Positions 1,505 through 8,836 of a stretch of DNA of 34,056 nucleotides are shown here, piece by piece. The translations under genes and the position numbers were made by a program. The stretch lies in IMG/VR virus record IMGVR_UViG_2703718832_000004. One strand, given 5' to 3'. The notes under the pieces are model-generated. The model was given only the letters and a program-made list of their open reading frames with translations. It did not search any database and was not told the DNA's origin. Position 1 is the first letter of the stretch; every line of letters begins with the position of its first letter. Source of the stretch: a virus. Its lineage: Duplodnaviria > Heunggongvirae > Uroviricota > Caudoviricetes.

Positions 1505-1894
1505 TTACTCCTTTTTCCCCGTATCGGCATCGGGTTCACCATCAAACAGTTTGCCCTGCATCCGATCCAGTTCTTCTTTTCTGACCCGCTTCACTACGCT
1601 GTAGACCCACTGTAGCGAAACACCAAATTTGCGGGCCAGTTCGTGATGGTTGCGTCCGTCAAACTCCAGGAAGATTTCCCGGTCGCGCTGGCTAACCTTC
1701 CAGACCATGCCCATCGGAAAATAGACGTTTTGCCCACCCCAGACCTGCATCATGCGGTTCGCAACAGCCTGACCAATCTGGTCGGCAACTGCGGGTTCGA
1801 TATCAATAATCTCTCGGACGGTCTCAGAAGTGTGCTGTGCCAGTTCTACCAACAGTTCCGGCCCTTTACTACGAAACTGATTCAGGTCGCTCAT
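1505..1894 (-). CDS. Mor/C-family transcriptional activator (Mu middle/late operon regulator-like)
   Basis: ORF 1505..1924 trimmed to ATG at 1894 preceded by GGGAG RBS; C-terminal region (NVYFP...FDGRNHHELARKFGVSLQWVYSVVKR) resembles the Mor/C HTH region of phage Mu; last gene of the minus-strand early arm. Confidence 0.7.
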   Translation of the reverse strand: MSDLNQFRSKGPELLVELAQHTSETVREIIDIEPAVADQIGQAVANRMMQVWGGQNVYFPMGMVWKVSQRDREIFLEFDGRNHHELARKFGVSLQWVYSVVKRVRKEELDRMQGKLFDGEPDADTGKKE

Positions 1895-2319
1895 TGCTTC
1901 ACTCCCGCAGCTCTGCGCTGCCACTTCTTCAGTTTCTCAATAACGCTACTTGCCTGCTCATTGCTGAGCCAGCGTAACGCGCTGATGCCCGTTTCCCGTT
2001 TAACCCACAACGCCAGCGCCTGCTCTGAACAGTCACGGACGGTACCCGCCGCTGCCATTTCAAGCCAAAGCGCACGGATTTTCTTTGACTGGGGATGGTT
2101 ATCCAGCGGTAAGCCGGACCTGGCTTTTCCGGCAGGCTTAATGCGAAAGCCTTTCTTTTTCATGGATTCCAGCACGCGGTTGAGCTGCGGGGTATCCATC
2201 CCTTTGGTTGAGGCTTTGCCGGTCAGACCCTGTAGCATCTGGCGGTAGGTGTCCTCATCCATCTGGAGGTCATTGCGGGCAATATGGATGAGTTGAATAA
2301 GACGCTGCTTAGTCATCAT
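1891..2319 (-). CDS. GemA-like regulatory protein (Mu gp16 family, DUF1018)
   Basis: N-terminus MMTKQRLIQLIHIARNDLQMDEDTYRQMLQ matches the characteristic GemA start; ATG at 2319 preceded by AAGGAG; stop overlaps the Mor start region. Confidence 0.7.
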   Translation of the reverse strand: MMTKQRLIQLIHIARNDLQMDEDTYRQMLQGLTGKASTKGMDTPQLNRVLESMKKKGFRIKPAGKARSGLPLDNHPQSKKIRALWLEMAAAGTVRDCSEQALALWVKRETGISALRWLSNEQASSVIEKLKKWQRRAAGVKQ

Positions 2320-2524
2320 CGTCGCTCCTTTTACCTGCGCCACCGATATAATCGACATATAAAGGAAGCGCTACAGGCCAGCACAGGAACATAACAGCCC
2401 AACTGATCCAGTGTGCGGCACCGTTGTAACGTGAGTAAAAACCTGAGCGGCGGTGCAGTTCAGCAGTACACCACCCCACGAGACCATACCAGAACAGGGC
2501 ACATACAATAGATTCAGCCATCAT
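2309..2524 (-). CDS. small membrane protein (two predicted hydrophobic helices), function unknown
   Basis: 71 aa, hydrophobic segments CALFWYGLVGWC and WAVMFLCWPVALPLYV; ATGA start/stop overlap with the upstream gene suggests translational coupling. Confidence 0.5.
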   Translation of the reverse strand: MMAESIVCALFWYGLVGWCTAELHRRSGFYSRYNGAAHWISWAVMFLCWPVALPLYVDYIGGAGKRSDDDD

Positions 2525-3210
2525 AAGCCACTCCCCAGCTTCCGCTGTTCCTGCCCGCTGACAGGCTGATGCAGGCGGACGTTTTCCCCTTCTCTGTAAC
2601 CGATGTGGCGGGACATGTCCGCGTCACGTGATTTCCCGGCCCCACGGCCCGTGGTTGTGCCTGAGTCAGGGTATTTTTGTTCAAGCCAGAGGCTTGCCAG
2701 CTCCCGTTCTTCGCGGGACATAGCAAATAAATGAACCTCGCTGCGCACGGCCAGAACCCAGCCTTCGGCAAACTTGTCACCACGACTGGTCTTGGTCGTG
2801 TTTTTGATTCTTTTATTCTGCTGTCGAATATAGTTTTTACGGGCCACGATTAATTGTCTGGCCAGTACCTCCCATGTATATGAGGCCAGTTCAACCCGGT
2901 CTTTATTACCGTAAAAACCAACGCTGGGTTTAAAGCCGGAGTGAATAATAGACTTAACGCCAAATGCTACCTGGATAATATCCAGCAGACCCAGCATGTA
3001 TCGCGGCGGGTTAACGCTACCTGCTGCCCAGTAGTTACTGACGCTTTCATCAATATCACTGAGTGCGAGGTCAGCCTGGGTGATGTTATAGGCCTGCATC
3101 AGTTTCTGGGCGCGTTGCAGGGCCAGTGCAGCTTCATGAGGGTTGTCGGATTTCGCCAGCGCCAGCAACTTTTTTAACTTCTCCAGCAGCTTTTCATTAT
3201 TCTGCGGCAT
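2521..3210 (-). CDS. DUF2786-type phage early protein
   Basis: 229 aa; N-terminal motif LLEKLKKLLALAKSDNPHEAALALQRAQKLM is the signature I associate with DUF2786 prophage proteins. Confidence 0.55.
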   Translation of the reverse strand: MPQNNEKLLEKLKKLLALAKSDNPHEAALALQRAQKLMQAYNITQADLALSDIDESVSNYWAAGSVNPPRYMLGLLDIIQVAFGVKSIIHSGFKPSVGFYGNKDRVELASYTWEVLARQLIVARKNYIRQQNKRIKNTTKTSRGDKFAEGWVLAVRSEVHLFAMSREERELASLWLEQKYPDSGTTTGRGAGKSRDADMSRHIGYREGENVRLHQPVSGQEQRKLGSGL

Positions 3211-3493
3211 AAGTCACCCCCAGACGTTCGGCAAGGCGTTCCAGCTTTTTCTGCTTATGAAAGTCAATCATCAGGCCCATCCCGTTGAGGCGGAACTGTT
3301 CAATCATGATTTCAACGTCAGCCAGCTCCCCAGCCAGATCAACTTCATTGCCCAGTCCGTTCATGTTGCGGGCAGCGGCAGCGGCCAGTTCGGCGGCTTC
3401 TTCCATTAGCTTCAGCGCCTGTGCTTCAGGGCCAAAGGTTTTCAGGGCCAGATTGTAGATCGTCGAACGGTTATATAATTTCATGCCTTTCAT
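3197..3493 (-). CDS. MazG-like nucleotide pyrophosphohydrolase family protein (small all-alpha NTP-PPase)
   Basis: Start moved to internal ATG at 3493 (ATGA overlap with the stop of the upstream zinc-ribbon gene). Motifs LMEEAAELAAA and LAGELADVEIMIEQ fit the EExxE ... ExxD helix pair of MazG/HisE-like NTP-PPases. Confidence 0.5.
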   Translation of the reverse strand: MKGMKLYNRSTIYNLALKTFGPEAQALKLMEEAAELAAAAARNMNGLGNEVDLAGELADVEIMIEQFRLNGMGLMIDFHKQKKLERLAERLGVTYAAE

Positions 3494-3678
3494 TGTTTTG
3501 CCTCGCAGGGGATGAACTCCATGGCCGGGACTTCGGTGTAGTAATGCTGGCTGCAGTGCGGGCATACCAGCGTGATGAGGACGGCTGGAACATGGTATTT
3601 GCCAGAGGTAATGACGCTGGCGTCGCTGAACTTCAGAGTGGTGATACCTTTCTTACAGTTGGAACATTTTATGGACAT
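3490..3678 (-). CDS. small zinc-ribbon protein
   Basis: 62 aa with CSNCKKG ... CPHCSQ (two CxxC pairs); GAGGA RBS 7 nt upstream of ATG 3678. Confidence 0.6.
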   Translation of the reverse strand: MSIKCSNCKKGITTLKFSDASVITSGKYHVPAVLITLVCPHCSQHYYTEVPAMEFIPCEAKQ

Positions 3679-3757
3679 GATTTATTCCTCAATGCTGTTT
3701 TCGGCGTGCAGAAGCCCACGGCGCTGACGCCGAAATAAAAAAGAAATTGAATTAAAA

Positions 3758-4369
3758 TTAAATGGCAGCGATATCTAACGGAATATTAATTAGCTTCCCG
3801 TGTTTATCTTTCTCCCGGAAATTAATATAGGTTTTGGACATGGCCACCTGCAGTGATTCCGATATGGCCTCCATTGCCCGGTTCCAGCGCTCATCCTGAA
3901 TCTTGACGCGACGCAGGGAAAGAATGCGTCCGGTGTTAAGCTGGCCCTCTTTGTCCACCTGAAAAGCATCGCTGATGATGGCCCGCAGGTTGGCGTTCGC
4001 GCCTTCCGACCACTCGGTGACGCACTCGTCTATCAGGTCTTTGGCAATCTGCAGCTCTGGCCCGAACGTCAGGGTTTCCTGAACGCGGATGGTGATCTGC
4101 TGAGCACCGTCGAAGCTGCTGAAGGTCACGTTGCCTTTGGCACCGCCGCGCGTTCTGCCGTACTTCTCGGCCACAAGGTCAAGCCAGGCATAGCACTCGT
4201 CAAAGGCACGACGCTTGAAGTCACTGAGTTCATCGCGTCTAACCTTCGCGGCGGCAACCTGTTCTTTAACGAAAGAATCCATTGCAAGGTCATAGTCAGA
4301 CACCTGGTCAACCGGCACCAGACGCCCCTTACGGTCTTTCATGTAGTCTTCTTTATTTACTTCGCTCAT
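3758..4369 (-). CDS. conserved Mu-like phage early protein (possibly DUF3164 family)
   Basis: 203 aa ORF with AAGGTG RBS; size and position match the approx 200-aa uncharacterised early proteins of Mu-like prophages; family name is a recollection, not verified. Confidence 0.45.
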   Translation of the reverse strand: MSEVNKEDYMKDRKGRLVPVDQVSDYDLAMDSFVKEQVAAAKVRRDELSDFKRRAFDECYAWLDLVAEKYGRTRGGAKGNVTFSSFDGAQQITIRVQETLTFGPELQIAKDLIDECVTEWSEGANANLRAIISDAFQVDKEGQLNTGRILSLRRVKIQDERWNRAMEAISESLQVAMSKTYINFREKDKHGKLINIPLDIAAI

Positions 4370-4386
4370 CTCTGTTCACCTTATGG

Positions 4387-4656
4387 TTAATGTAATGACT
4401 CTGACCAGGTAATACGGCAGCCATGCAGTTCAAAGACGCCCTGACGAAAGCGCCCTGAGCCGTCATGACCAACATGGGTATAACTCGCTTTGCCCTGCTC
4501 CAGCAGGCGGGCACAGTGCCCGTTACGGGCGATACGGATAACCGGCTTACTGCCAGCAATCATGACGCTCTGCACGGTAGTGTTCATGGCGTTGAGCGCC
4601 ATAATGGCGGACTGGACCTTACTCATCTGCTGATTGATATCGGCGATGGATTTCAT
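4387..4656 (-). CDS. hypothetical small early protein
   Basis: 89 aa ORF directly downstream of the transposition ATPase, AGGGGG RBS before ATG 4656. Confidence 0.5.
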   Translation of the reverse strand: MKSIADINQQMSKVQSAIMALNAMNTTVQSVMIAGSKPVIRIARNGHCARLLEQGKASYTHVGHDGSGRFRQGVFELHGCRITWSESLH

Positions 4657-4658
4657 GG

Positions 4659-5825
4659 TTAAACCCCCTTGACGACGTCGGCGTTGACCTGCGGAACCCC
4701 GATTTCAGCGGCCAGATTCATGGCGGCTATCACCAGGTTACTGACGGCCAGCGGATACAGCAGGCTGACCATGCTTTTACGGTTGCTGCCCAGATTGCTC
4801 AGGCGGGCACGGATGGCTTCCACAGCGCTGGCGTCCATGATGTCGGCCAGCTGCTTACCGGCGCGTTGCAGTTTGAACGCCAGAAATTCTTCGAGACTGT
4901 TATCCAGTGGCAGCAGCTCAACCACCTCGCAGCGCTGGACGACTTCACGCACTTCCATATTGCGTTCGGACAGCTTGTCCGCCAGTTCAGGCTGGCCAAT
5001 CAAGACGATGGACAGCAGTTTTTTGAAGCCGGACTCCAGCTCGAAAAAGCGTTTGAGGTGCTTCAGCGTCGGAATAGGCAGACTGTGGGCCTCCTCAATG
5101 ACCAGAACGTGGCTGAAACCTGCCTGACTGCTGTCCTTCAGGACGCGGTGCAGCTGGCGGAAACGGGCGTCCTGACTGCGTTTGATACCTTCAAGTGGCG
5201 CGATGGTGCTGATGATGGCCTCGGCGATAGCTGCCGCCTTCAGGGTTTTGCCCTTTACGTCGTTGTCCTCCATGGCAATGATGTACGGTTCGATGACAAT
5301 CACTGGCGCGTTCTCGCGGTTGACGCGTTCAATCAGGTCGCGGCGCAGCGTGGATTTACCCGCGCCGGACTCGCCAATAACCGCTAGAAAGCCACCGTGA
5401 CGGGCTGTCTGGAATAGTGCCTCACGCACGTAGCGGATATCTGGCGTGGTAAACACATCGTCCGCGCCCTGCATGGATTCATCGGCGAACGGGTCACGGA
5501 AAAGGCCAAACGCTTTTTTAGTTGCTGGAAATAACACCTGCTTTTTGAGTAACATGTTCTCTTCCTCACTGAGGTTGGTTTTATCGGTAGTACCCGCTGT
5601 ACAGGGCGTGACAGCGCCCTGTGCAGCATCAAAACTCTTCGCTGTATCAATTCCCTGACTTTCCAGCCAGGACGCCAGACGCTGACGCACCGCCTCCGGG
5701 CTGGTGCGGGGCCACTCGTTGTGGTTCACAATCTGGGCCAGCGTGGCCTCGGAAACGGCGACGGCTCTTGCCACCACCGCCTGCGGGATGCGGGCCTCTT
5801 TCAGTTGTTGCTTCAGTACCAGCAT
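4659..5825 (-). CDS. AAA+ ATPase, transposition target-DNA activator (Mu B-like / TniB-like)
   Basis: 388 aa; N-terminal HTH-like region, Walker A GESGAGKST and Walker B-like VLVIEEAH; sits immediately downstream of the transposase as in transposable phages; GAGGAGG RBS. Confidence 0.8.
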   Translation of the reverse strand: MLVLKQQLKEARIPQAVVARAVAVSEATLAQIVNHNEWPRTSPEAVRQRLASWLESQGIDTAKSFDAAQGAVTPCTAGTTDKTNLSEEENMLLKKQVLFPATKKAFGLFRDPFADESMQGADDVFTTPDIRYVREALFQTARHGGFLAVIGESGAGKSTLRRDLIERVNRENAPVIVIEPYIIAMEDNDVKGKTLKAAAIAEAIISTIAPLEGIKRSQDARFRQLHRVLKDSSQAGFSHVLVIEEAHSLPIPTLKHLKRFFELESGFKKLLSIVLIGQPELADKLSERNMEVREVVQRCEVVELLPLDNSLEEFLAFKLQRAGKQLADIMDASAVEAIRARLSNLGSNRKSMVSLLYPLAVSNLVIAAMNLAAEIGVPQVNADVVKGV

Positions 5826-5836
5826 GTTTTTCCTCC

Positions 5837-7606
5837 TCAGTTGCCGTTAACGATGCTGATAACGCTGCTGCGGGCCGGAGTGGTCAGGGTGACCATCACC
5901 TCATCCAGTGCGGCTTCCGGTACGCCGTCCGGGTACCGTGCCGTTAACTGGCGGTAACATTCCGGCGTCCAGGTATGGCCGTTCGCGCTGAACTTCTCGC
6001 GCAGGACTTTTGCAGCCTCCACATGGGTCAGCGGACGCTGCTCAATACGCGGCCCGCGCACATCTGAAGCCTGACCGCGCTTCGGCATATAGGCCGGAAG
6101 CGTGGTGTCGTCGATATGTTTATACGGGTCAAGCCGTCCGCCAAACGGCAGCGCCTTCGCCTTGCGTGCAGCTGCTGCATCGGCGGCGTTGTCGGTGCCG
6201 GTGACCAGCTCTTCGATTTCTTTTTCCGCCGTTTGCGCCGGGGTCTCCGGCAGGGCTTTGTAGTTTTCGCCAAATACCGCCGCGCTTTCGGCAAAGCCAA
6301 ACTCGTTCTTTCTGACCTCTTCGACCAGGAAGAACGTCTCGTGCCCGTCTTCGCCGGTCAGTACCACCTGCGCCACATCGCTGCGCCATGGGTTGCGGGT
6401 AATCATCAGCTTTTCGCCAACCATCACGCCCGGCACCGTCGAAACATCAAACTCTGCGCCCCGGAACGGTACACGCAGTTTTGATGTGACCTTGCGACTT
6501 TCCGGCGCAGCCACCGCCAGTTCGCGGCATACCTCAACGGATGGCGCTTTCTTCAGCTGCTCAGCGGTAATTTTCAGCCAGATATCCGTGCGGGTTTTAC
6601 CGTGGCGACTGTGAACTGCAGTGGCGTTAAAGTGGCAGCGCCATTTCACGGCCAGCGCGTTCAGTTCTTCCAGGCTGTGAACCGGCTGGAACTTGAGACC
6701 CGGCTCCAGCTTGCGTTCGATAATGTCACGGGCCTTTTCCACCTGCCCGGTAGCGCGGGCGTTATGCGGCTTGTGCGCTATCAGGTCGATGCCAAGCGAG
6801 CGGCACATGTTTTTCGTCATGCCAGCGGTGTTCGCCGAGCCGGGGTCGAGATAGAGTATTTTCGGCACACCGTGCAGTACGTCTGCGCCGCCGCGCTCCT
6901 GCATGGCGTTGATAAGCACAGAGCAAAGGTTTTCACCCGACTCCGCGCCCATCACGTACTCAACGTAAATCCAGCCGCTGGTATGGTCGGTAATCTCGTA
7001 ACTCCACACGCGGTCACTGGCGATGCGTGCGATGTTGGCAGGCTTGTTCTTGTAGAACTTCGCGCTGTCCATCACCTGCAGCCCTTTATGGCCGTTGCTC
7101 AGGTAGTAAAGCGTACAGAGTGAGGCATCAATCTCCCAGACGTGGTTGGGATGCAGGCTGGCCATCTCAGACGACGGAGCCGGTGCGTCAAGCTGCTCCG
7201 GGTGCAGGCCATAGTTACGCAGGGCGCGGCTGATGGTGTCCTCGGACAGCGGGAAAAACTCGCCTGTGGCCTCGTCCGTTCTGCCTGCAGTGATAAAGCC
7301 GTTTGAACGCAGTGTCTCCACCGCATCCGCGATGGAATACAGGCGCTTACCGTTCTTACGGGTGGCCTCGCGTAGCGTGGCAGATATCAGCGCGGCTTCG
7401 TCGCGGCTCAGGGCGCTGCGCCCGGCATCGGCGCGTTTTTTACGTTTGTCAGTCACTGATACCTCCTTCAGCTTGCGCAGCAGGGTGGCGCGGGACATGC
7501 CCAGTTCAGCGCAGGCGGCGTCGTATATCGCACCGCGCTTACCATGCCCCGCGTCACGTGCCGCGCGGGCAACATAAACCAGTCGTTCAGTCAGGGCGGC
7601 ACTCAT
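5837..7606 (-). CDS. DDE-type transposase (rve/integrase-core superfamily; phage transposase A equivalent)
   Basis: 589 aa; N-terminal HTH (MSRATLLRKLKE), then candidate acidic catalytic residues (WEIDAS, LYLDPGSANTAG); AGGAGG RBS; followed by the AAA+ ATPase. Not obviously alignable to Mu A by eye; resembles the Tn552-type transposases recalled for BcepMu-type phages. Confidence 0.75.
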   Translation of the reverse strand: MSAALTERLVYVARAARDAGHGKRGAIYDAACAELGMSRATLLRKLKEVSVTDKRKKRADAGRSALSRDEAALISATLREATRKNGKRLYSIADAVETLRSNGFITAGRTDEATGEFFPLSEDTISRALRNYGLHPEQLDAPAPSSEMASLHPNHVWEIDASLCTLYYLSNGHKGLQVMDSAKFYKNKPANIARIASDRVWSYEITDHTSGWIYVEYVMGAESGENLCSVLINAMQERGGADVLHGVPKILYLDPGSANTAGMTKNMCRSLGIDLIAHKPHNARATGQVEKARDIIERKLEPGLKFQPVHSLEELNALAVKWRCHFNATAVHSRHGKTRTDIWLKITAEQLKKAPSVEVCRELAVAAPESRKVTSKLRVPFRGAEFDVSTVPGVMVGEKLMITRNPWRSDVAQVVLTGEDGHETFFLVEEVRKNEFGFAESAAVFGENYKALPETPAQTAEKEIEELVTGTDNAADAAAARKAKALPFGGRLDPYKHIDDTTLPAYMPKRGQASDVRGPRIEQRPLTHVEAAKVLREKFSANGHTWTPECYRQLTARYPDGVPEAALDEVMVTLTTPARSSVISIVNGN

Positions 7607-7609
7607 GGG

Positions 7610-8521
7610 TTATGCCTCCTGCCCGTTAATCTGTGGCGTCGGGTCAGTCAGCCATGAAGGGGCGGAGTTGCCTGTCGGCTCGTCCGGCAGGTCAAATGTG
7701 GAGCGCAGGCTACGCGCGGTGCTTTCCAGCTGGCAGACCAGACCGGCCATAAAGTCTCTGGGGGTATCAATCATGTTTTCAGCGCAGTATACGCACAGGG
7801 TCTCAAAGGCACTGGACAGTCGAACGGCGATGGCAGATTCCGCCTCAACCGCTAACGCCGTCACTTCTGCCCGCAGCTTCTTCACCTCTTCGTCAGGCTT
7901 AGGCGGCTGGATACGGGATTTCTTTTCCAGCTTTGTGGAGAGCGAGTCGATTTTTTCGTTTTTGTCGGCGAGTACGCGCTGTTGTGCTGCGTTGGTTTCA
8001 CGCGCTTCACGTAGGGCTGCCTTCAGTTCGCGGCTGGTCATGCGATCAATATCATCAAGCGTTGCCCCGGCGACGGTTCCACCATCAGCCAATGCGTCGA
8101 GTTCTTCGTCATCCAGAACCATCAGTTCATACAACTTGGTCTTACCTAAAACGGTCAGCGCTGTCCGTTTTGAATTTTGATCGCCATTACCCAAAAATTT
8201 CACGCTGGCCTGCATCATGCGGCGTGCGACGCGCGGCTCAAGGCCGAGGTCATTTTCGAGAATATTTATAAAATCGCCGTGAGGTTCATTCTCCTTGAGA
8301 ATTACCAGCCGCTTACCCGCCTCCAGCATGGCTTCAGCACTCTGAGCCATATAAAACCGTGTTTCGTGAACGATACGATCACGTTCATACGGCAGACCAT
8401 CACCGAACTGCTGCATGATTTCGAGGCGATGTTCTGTCATGGCATTAAGACTAACATTGAGGCCATCACTCAGCGATGCGTCTTCCACTAGTTCAACTGG
8501 TTGTGATTTTGTGCGTCCCAT
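7610..8521 (-). CDS. hypothetical early protein (coiled-coil rich), function unknown
   Basis: 303 aa ORF with AAGGAG RBS, between the winged-helix gene and the transposase; central region predicted coiled coil (LKAALREARETNAAQQRVLADKNEKIDSLSTKLEKK). Confidence 0.6.
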   Translation of the reverse strand: MGRTKSQPVELVEDASLSDGLNVSLNAMTEHRLEIMQQFGDGLPYERDRIVHETRFYMAQSAEAMLEAGKRLVILKENEPHGDFINILENDLGLEPRVARRMMQASVKFLGNGDQNSKRTALTVLGKTKLYELMVLDDEELDALADGGTVAGATLDDIDRMTSRELKAALREARETNAAQQRVLADKNEKIDSLSTKLEKKSRIQPPKPDEEVKKLRAEVTALAVEAESAIAVRLSSAFETLCVYCAENMIDTPRDFMAGLVCQLESTARSLRSTFDLPDEPTGNSAPSWLTDPTPQINGQEA

Positions 8522-8530
8522 TTCAACTCC

Positions 8531-8836
8531 TTAGCGACCGCCAGCCATAACACGCTGGTTGATTTCATTAATACGATCCTGCGCCCGCGCCATCTCGGTG
8601 CTATGCGCCATGGCAATTTGTAAGAGCTGGACTCCAGGGGCAAAACGCCCGTTATCCAGTTTGAGGGCCAGTCCCTCTTCGATAAGGGTATTGAGTGCCC
8701 GATTGATATTCGCCGGGGACTCGCCCAGGGCTGATGCCAGTTCACCGTTAGAAACCCCATTCAGAGCGTGACCACGCAGTGCTTTAAGAACGCGAAGAAT
8801 GCGAGATCCAGAACTGGATACATTTGCTTTGCTCAT
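8531..8836 (-). CDS. winged-helix DNA-binding protein (putative early regulator)
   Basis: 101 aa; HTH-like segment NGVSNGELASALGESPANINRALNTLIEEGLA; AGGAGG RBS; ATGA overlap with the Ner-like gene stop. Confidence 0.55.
   Translation of the reverse strand: MSKANVSSSGSRILRVLKALRGHALNGVSNGELASALGESPANINRALNTLIEEGLALKLDNGRFAPGVQLLQIAMAHSTEMARAQDRINEINQRVMAGGR

Follow-up and report, generated by a model that had tools for sequence, protein, structure and literature searches.

A single-domain MazG-like pyrophosphohydrolase gene and a neighbouring zinc-ribbon gene as probably independent early-operon accessory genes of a BcepMu-like Escherichia coli prophage

Two overlapping genes in a packed early operon

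The window analysed here is the whole 34,056-nt stretch of viral DNA in the IMG/VR record IMGVR_UViG_2703718832_000004, in which two small overlapping genes on the minus strand encode a 62-aa protein with four conserved cysteines and a 98-aa protein with the acidic motifs of MazG-type enzymes. We favour, and hold to be probable, the reading that each of them is an accessory gene in its own right, carried in the compact early operon of a BcepMu-like transposable prophage. The 98-aa product belongs to the all-alpha NTP pyrophosphohydrolase (MazG/HisE) superfamily as a minimal form with a single domain. In related loci the two genes often occur close together within a variable accessory slot, but the gene order across these loci shows that they are not an obligate module.

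The element that carries them is a BcepMu-like (Mu-like) transposable prophage in E. coli. Positions 1-1342 of the window are E. coli chromosome (the dpaA/yafL region, 100% identity), and a leftward operon follows on the minus strand at about 1505-8836. In the order of transcription, the operon starts with genes for a Ner-like HTH protein, a DUF3102 protein, a MuA-like DDE transposase and a MuB-like AAA+ protein, continues with an 89-aa HI_1482-family protein, a DUF3164 protein, the zinc ribbon, the MazG-like protein and a DUF2786/DUF7168 protein, and ends with a 71-aa protein, GemA and Mor. Divergent from the operon is a CI-type repressor gene at 9147, and late genes then lie on the plus strand. 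The first-pass annotation had placed the two genes in the early arm, which is right because of the synteny with Mu: the leftward operon contains the Ner-like, MuA-like, MuB-like, GemA and Mor genes, with the CI gene divergent from it. Its nearest relatives among named phages are Escherichia phage PhiKM, which is classified as Bcepmuvirus, Phi06_2974 B and Klebsiella phage KP12.

The immediate neighbours are the DUF3164 gene upstream (3758..4369, minus strand; Pfam E 3.3e-80), whose slot is taken by Gam in PhiKM-type related loci, and the DUF2786/DUF7168 gene downstream (2521..3210, minus strand; Pfam E 1.4e-24 and 2.2e-13), which is downstream of the enzyme gene in most relatives and here overlaps it by 14 nt. 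Searches around the two genes gave no promoter, terminator or Rfam element beyond chance. An inverted repeat lies in the 79-bp gap 5' of the zinc-ribbon gene, and this region folds no better than its shuffles (z -1.15).

Both ORFs are present on the minus strand where the first-pass annotation had located them, with the CxxC...CxxC and EExxE / ExxD motifs that it described. The zinc-ribbon gene occupies 3490..3678, with a Shine-Dalgarno sequence GAGGA (3686..3690, minus strand) 7 nt 5' of its ATG. The MazG-like gene occupies 3197..3493, and its Shine-Dalgarno sequence GAGG (3501..3504, minus strand), also 7 nt 5' of the ATG, lies within the zinc-ribbon coding sequence. In near-identical E. coli prophages, PGAP calls the same arrangement, namely a 297-nt gene and a 189-nt gene with a 4-nt overlap. 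A longer 122-aa reading of the MazG-like ORF, starting from an ATG at 3565, was rejected, as it is used neither by homologues nor by PGAP.

For relatives of 80-97% identity, the MazG-like gene has a dN/dS of 0.03-0.08 in the comparison with five of the six intact relatives and of 0.28 in that with relative L061, while the value for the zinc-ribbon gene is 0.10-0.18; the comparison is ungapped and is broken by two loci with decayed or length-altered copies. Because the dN/dS values are low and the cysteines and acidic residues are conserved, both ORFs are real genes and did not arise by chance.

Family and fold of the 98-aa protein

The 98-aa protein (MKGMKLYNRS...LMEEAAELAAAAARNMNGLGNEVDLAGELADVEIMIEQF...) contains the motif E31-E32-A-A-E35 and, 20 residues further on, E56-L-A-D59. 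The acidic metal-binding motif of MazG/HisE enzymes is defined as E-E-x-x-E, then 12-28 residues, then E-x-x-D, and the protein carries it. In the PHROG collection it matches phrog_2245 (nucleoside triphosphate pyrophosphohydrolase) over the full length of its domain, with an E-value of 4.7e-31. The profile of this family has 218 positions, of which the protein spans 116-210 only; many phrog_2245 members carry assorted N-terminal extensions, which are absent from the 98-aa protein.

The curated models place it just under their cut-offs. Against Pfam, PRA-PH scored 19.6 bits (cut-off 21.3) and MazG 13.5 bits (cut-off 22), and against NCBIfam, HisE scored 15.8 bits (cut-off 42.7). These scores are near misses and do not contradict the PHROG match. 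The names given by current pipelines agree with it: WP_032438819.1, which is 99% identical, is called "nucleoside triphosphate pyrophosphohydrolase family protein" by the newest PGAP, and close relatives bear the JGI name "NTP pyrophosphatase (non-canonical NTP hydrolase)". The enzyme is therefore a member of a very large family already named by PGAP and JGI.

To describe the extent of this family, we searched a 50%-identity library with the family profile, and 16,073 clusters were matched at E <= 1e-3. Among 100 relatives of the enzyme, the Pfam families that recur are MazG (16) and PRA-PH (5), and none else. One family member, P0167, is matched by the family profile at E 4e-28 and itself reaches the Pfam MazG model with 33.8 bits against a cut-off of 22. 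It turned out that the 98-aa protein belongs to the superfamily both by its phrog_2245 match and by transitive homology through P0167.

The putative catalytic residues are well kept. All the acidic residues are at least 90% conserved among 39 homologues, and the five of them are retained in homologues as distant as about 30-37% identity. In a set of 100 diverse relatives (22-51% identity), G21, Q25, E31, A58 and D59 are invariant, while E32, E35, E56, K83 and R86 are at least 90% conserved.

Each of the two proteins was predicted singly with AF2, and both models are confident (pLDDT 93.7 for the enzyme and 93 for the zinc ribbon). In the enzyme model, built with 39 homologues, the predicted helices are 9-44, 50-70 and 73-90, which corresponds to the helical-bundle fold of MazG/HisE proteins. 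Foldseek with this model returned a top ten that are all MazG-type, although with weak statistics (E about 0.1, TM about 0.5). The solved single-domain MazG proteins include SSO3215 of Sulfolobus (1VMG), the integron iMazG (2Q5Z/2Q73), Bacillus MazG (5IE9), B. subtilis YpjD (2GTA) and mouse RS21-C6 (2A3Q); the model differs from solved MazG structures in that helices 1 and 2 are predicted as one continuous helix, 9-44. When the solved structures were searched with the profile, 5IE9 and 2Q73 were sub-significant (best E 0.054). A single-sequence search of the same kind gave just a designed helical repeat and an unrelated hydrolase, which were set aside.

Since a MazG-family match and a MazG-type fold were both found, and the acidic residues are conserved in homologues, the assignment as a MazG-like protein made in the first-pass annotation stands.

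The 62-aa protein as a predicted zinc ribbon

The 62-aa protein (MSIKCSNCKK...LVCPHCSQHYY...) contains two CxxC motifs, C5xxC8 and C39xxC42. It matches phrog_3401, a family of unknown function, at E 5.4e-32, end to end for the domain. No curated zinc-ribbon model of Pfam or NCBIfam matched it above threshold, and no match was obtained among solved zinc-ribbon structures.

The four cysteines are invariant in 10 homologues of 29-75% identity and at least 90% conserved among 44 sequences, and they are kept in homologues as distant as about 30-37% identity. A further cysteine, C58, is not conserved. The AF2 model is all-beta with two predicted knuckles; its strands are 16-25, 30-38 and 45-51, together with an N-terminal hairpin (3-4, 11-12) around the first CxxC, while the second CxxC forms the turn 39-44. 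The knuckles and the three-stranded antiparallel sheet expected of a Cys4 zinc ribbon are thus present in the model. The call of a zinc-ribbon protein was borne out by the invariant cysteines and the confident model, and the 62-aa product is a predicted Cys4 zinc ribbon, separate from the enzyme.

A word-indexed search with the single sequence retrieved close relatives only. Remote homologues (29-58% identity) were collected from upstream of the enzyme genes in related loci and then used in an alignment search, which gave 75 clusters, and all named sources among them are Enterobacterales genomes. The zinc-ribbon family was found only in Mu-like prophages of this order.

Distribution of the two genes in related loci

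To summarize how the two genes occur together, 114 loci with an enzyme relative were fetched, four annotated records were added, and all were classified. Among 104 enterobacterial loci, the zinc-ribbon gene is directly upstream of the enzyme gene in 41, mostly with an ATGA overlap; in another 47 it is upstream with a gene of 90-95 aa (phrog_3691) between them, and this insert was confirmed. The remaining 16 gave no zinc-ribbon match, and about 14 of these truly lack the gene. Where it is missing, the enzyme gene comes after DUF3164 or overlaps Gam by ATGA. No zinc-ribbon homologue was found in 13 distant non-enterobacterial loci.

The reverse situation also exists. In Mu-like prophages of Salmonella (24 contigs were read and 3 of them shown), as also in Photorhabdus, the zinc ribbon is present and the enzyme is not, and the enzyme HMM gave no match in these zinc-ribbon loci even at E 10. 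A 193-aa Salmonella protein, which we had at first presumed from a motif to be a nucleotide pyrophosphatase, was rejected as a replacement for the enzyme, as it has no Pfam match and its PHROG matches are only to families of unknown function.

Part of the gene pair is matched in 603 of 5,426 complete E. coli genomes, and at least 80% of the query is matched in only 28 of these 603. One weakly matching genome was sampled and is of the inserted type, with the enzyme start after a 9-nt gap; from this one sampled representative, the inserted type is the commonest E. coli variant.

These results bear on the explanation in which the zinc ribbon and the enzyme form a true two-component module, the zinc ribbon serving as a regulator, specificity or targeting subunit and the ATGA overlap enforcing stoichiometry. 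In its favour is the order of the genes: of the 104 enterobacterial loci, 88 have the zinc ribbon and then the enzyme, close together, and these include loci whose zinc ribbons are only 30-40% identical, so that some functional link between them may exist. Besides, two distant homologues of the enzyme from gut phages, P0082 and P0084, carry an N-terminal Cys-rich domain that is Lar-like at a sub-threshold score (Pfam 22.8 bits, cut-off 28.6), and other homologues of the same distant lineage are located downstream of an overlapping zinc-ribbon ORF.

Several observations speak against such a module. A 90-aa gene intervenes in the 47 inserted loci and in the sampled common E. coli type, the enzyme keeps all its catalytic residues in the loci where the zinc ribbon is missing, and other prophages carry the zinc ribbon but not the enzyme. 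The distant gut-phage cases may be coincidence, given how often small zinc-ribbon ORFs turn up in phage accessory regions. Moreover, the N-terminal extensions of 41 representatives of the extended enzyme family are heterogeneous, with at least two CxxC motifs in just 2 of the 41, which rules out the zinc ribbon as a general partner of the family. Two apparent fusions, P0018 and P0024, were also discarded: they are rare frameshift products (1 and 7 member sequences) and were not taken as programmed fusions, because the frame shifts about nine codons ahead of the stop.

An obligate module would have each gene only with the other and adjacent to it, and this is not what is seen in the 104 enterobacterial loci or in Salmonella and Photorhabdus. 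The description of the two genes as a functional pair or module is therefore not supported, with the insert in 47 of 104 loci, about 14 enzymes alone and the zinc ribbon alone elsewhere, and we regard a two-component module as unlikely.

Overlap and translational coupling

The stop and start codons of the two genes share the sequence ATGA at 3490..3493 on the minus strand, where the ATG of the enzyme gene is 3493-3491 and the TGA of the zinc-ribbon gene 3492-3490. The same overlap is found in most of the relatives with adjacent genes, while in other relatives the MazG-like gene overlaps Gam by ATGA or begins past a 9-nt gap. In the window itself, overlap is the rule across the operon: from the zinc ribbon down to Mor, all five successive gene junctions overlap, by 4, 14, 4, 11 and 4 nt.

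The RNA around the ATGA is poorly structured. Its minimum free energy is -13.4, compared with a mean of -20.0 for the shuffles (z +2.13), and 199 of the 200 shuffles are more strongly structured. Such unstructured junction RNA fits plain coupling or re-initiation. The translational coupling claimed for the pair is thus supported only as a fact of the sequence, by the ATGA, the Shine-Dalgarno sequence and the unstructured RNA. Nothing in it sets this pair apart, since all five junctions down to Mor overlap.

Com of phage Mu, a 62-aa Cys4 zinc-finger protein, is the translational activator of mom, and a zinc ribbon of the same length in a Mu-like phage naturally raises the idea of a Com-like activator that, once bound to the mRNA, would unfold a hairpin over the overlapping downstream start. 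The resemblance lies in the size, the Cys4 design and the Mu-type phage, and also in the gene overlap, as the zinc-ribbon gene always overlaps the next gene, whatever gene follows. The two proteins differ in their cysteine spacing and in their position, which is the early operon here and the late com-mom region in Mu. Besides, the Pfam Com family gave no match to the zinc ribbon at E up to 1, and the low structure of the start RNA leaves no sequestering hairpin for a Com-like protein to open, which excludes a Com-like hairpin switch. With neither a Com-family match nor a junction hairpin, this candidate was rejected, and we give it almost no credence.

Putative function of the enzyme

If the 98-aa protein behaves as its family does, it would form a dimer or tetramer and bind Mg2+ through E31/E32/E35 on the helix 9-44 and E56/D59 on the helix 50-70. 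It would then cleave the alpha-beta phosphoanhydride bond, converting a nucleoside triphosphate into NMP and PPi, and the phosphates may be held in part by K83, R86 and R90, which are conserved residues of the last helix. (d)NTPs are the substrates of most characterised single-domain MazG relatives, and by analogy the substrate here would be one or more (d)NTPs, so that the enzyme may house-clean or shape the nucleotide pool during phage replication by transposition. The ATGA overlap would then reflect operon compaction and ordinary translational coupling, with no dedicated two-protein system.

The first-pass annotation had proposed another role, in which the enzyme acts early on host alarmones or signalling nucleotides. 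Its closest precedent is Atd1 of Pectobacterium phage PcCB7V, a single-domain MazG-like phage protein for which ppGpp hydrolysis has been proven experimentally (Km about 50 uM) and which counters the toxicity of TIR-STING and retron-TIR (bioRxiv 10.1101/2022.06.09.495361). Like Atd1, the enzyme described here is phage-encoded and MazG-like, consists of the catalytic domain only and comes from a phage of Enterobacterales. By analogy, it could hydrolyse (p)ppGpp or a signalling nucleotide early and so block stringent-response-linked or abortive-infection death, which would make it a counter-defence or host-takeover factor as originally suggested. It also fits this idea that the variable early region holds Gam, an inhibitor of host nucleases, in relatives.

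However, the two proteins are likened by description, and their settings differ: Atd1 stands beside nucleotidyltransferase genes in a lytic phage, whereas the gene described here lies among the early-operon genes of a transposable prophage. Its neighbours are DUF3164, DUF2786/DUF7168, GemA, Mor and MuB-like genes, with no nucleotidyltransferase and no recognised anti-defence gene among them, and a PADLOC search for defence systems gave no match. The other published phage case also points the opposite way. The MazG of cyanophage S-PM2, for which an alarmone role was long proposed, is likewise a phage pyrophosphohydrolase of the MazG family, although larger and of the bacterial MazG type; its preferred substrates are dGTP and dCTP, and it shows neither binding nor hydrolysis of (p)ppGpp (PMC6850273).

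For the enzyme of this prophage, we consider the Atd1-like mode of action a minority alternative, possible yet rather doubtful, and the same holds for a role in counter-defence or host takeover built on it. The nucleotide-pool role is favoured because the published phage cases conflict and most characterised single-domain relatives act on (d)NTPs.

The most far-reaching reading joins both ideas, in that the zinc ribbon and the enzyme together would be an early counter-defence device in Mu-like phages of Enterobacterales, in which the zinc ribbon regulates or targets the enzyme and the enzyme destroys (p)ppGpp or an immune signalling nucleotide. We find such a joint device quite improbable, and no less so the division of labour it assumes. 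If it were true, the Cys-rich domains beside or fused to the distant homologues would represent the same partnership.

Conclusion

As a discovery, the MazG-like gene carries little weight, since it adds one more member to a huge family (about 16,000 clusters at 50% identity) that current pipelines already name. The zinc ribbon falls into an existing PHROG, phrog_3401. This PHROG can now be flagged as a conserved Cys4 predicted zinc protein, which is missed in some records. The case also warns against taking an ATGA overlap as evidence for a functional pair where a phage operon is compact. If the enzyme does degrade alarmones or immune nucleotides, the Atd1 idea would also take in a kind of transposable prophage that abounds in clinical E. 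coli. In any case, the analysis offers a cleaner annotation for the early region of BcepMu-like E. coli prophages, a gene set of which some version is carried by about a tenth of complete E. coli genomes.

Gene replacement and apparent insertion around the zinc-ribbon gene

In the slot upstream of the zinc-ribbon gene, this prophage carries DUF3164 (window 3758-4369, minus strand), while related prophages carry the Gam host-nuclease inhibitor in the equivalent slot (L003 4767-5297, minus strand, and also the loci L017, L018 and L129), an either/or replacement at one position. The 79-bp gap that separates DUF3164 from the zinc-ribbon gene is the only sizeable intergenic gap in that part of the operon, and it contains a perfect 9-bp inverted repeat (window 3699-3735; TTTCGGCGT ... 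ACGCCGAAA, with a loop of 19 nt). This repeat has no terminator-like character, and the region folds no better than its shuffles (z -1.15).

On the other side of the zinc-ribbon gene, a phrog_3691 gene (90-95 aa) separates it from the MazG-like gene in the representative sampled for the common E. coli type. This gene is present in 47 of the fetched loci, including L003 4206-4478 and L129 3206-3478 (both minus strand), and its protein starts with MITPQEARQRTR... at the N-terminus. It shares 4 nt with the zinc-ribbon stop and so has the look of a self-contained cassette that was inserted here.

The L003 locus belongs to Escherichia phage PhiKM (PQ738613.1), in which we found a 64-aa zinc-ribbon homologue with 56% identity (L003 4505-4669, minus strand) that is absent from the record's annotation. 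What PQ738613.1 lists in its stead is a “hypothetical protein” on the other strand (locus 4535-4756, plus strand), which is probably spurious.

Apparent decay, absence, fusion and additional domains of the MazG-like enzyme

The MazG-like gene appears decayed or altered in length in Erwinia tracheiphila (L014) and Candidatus Erwinia dacicola (L016/L066), where the predicted products are shorter and ungapped comparison fails; the upstream zinc-ribbon gene is intact in these loci. A Salmonella Mu-like prophage (L119) is without the MazG-like gene, and a 193-aa protein (L119 3385-3966, plus strand) fills the position ahead of DUF2786. Its family matches are phrog_16519 and phrog_4838, and it has none in Pfam.

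In two rare database proteins, P0018 (153 aa) and P0024 (166 aa), zinc ribbon and enzyme are fused by a frame change that lies close to a CCCC run, about 9 codons ahead of the stop of the zinc ribbon. Since they have just 1 and 7 member sequences respectively, sequencing errors or sporadic mutations are more likely than programmed frameshifts. Some close relatives of the enzyme (P0022, P0025 and P0026; 169 aa; loci L061 and L062) are extended at the C-terminus by an additional domain, about 70 aa long (LPRRELLEDWCGAVP...), for which no family match was obtained except weak HTH hits.

Among the distant MazG-like homologues, P0082 and P0084 (168-171 aa) contain an N-terminal Cys-rich domain that is Lar-like (restriction alleviation), with a Pfam score of 22.8 bits, below the cut-off of 28.6. 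They come from phage contigs of gut metagenomes (L125/L126 5001-5507). In the locus L127, an unfused MazG-like homologue follows an overlapping 84-aa ORF, the end of which is a CxxC...CxxC zinc ribbon.

Prophage end and chromosomal sites

Window 1-1342 matches the E. coli chromosome (dpaA/yafL region) with 100% identity, and as the match stops at 1342, the prophage end lies between this position and Mor (1505-1924). Other copies are located at different chromosomal sites, adjoining dsdX and ycaL, which is the pattern one would expect if the phage is transposable.
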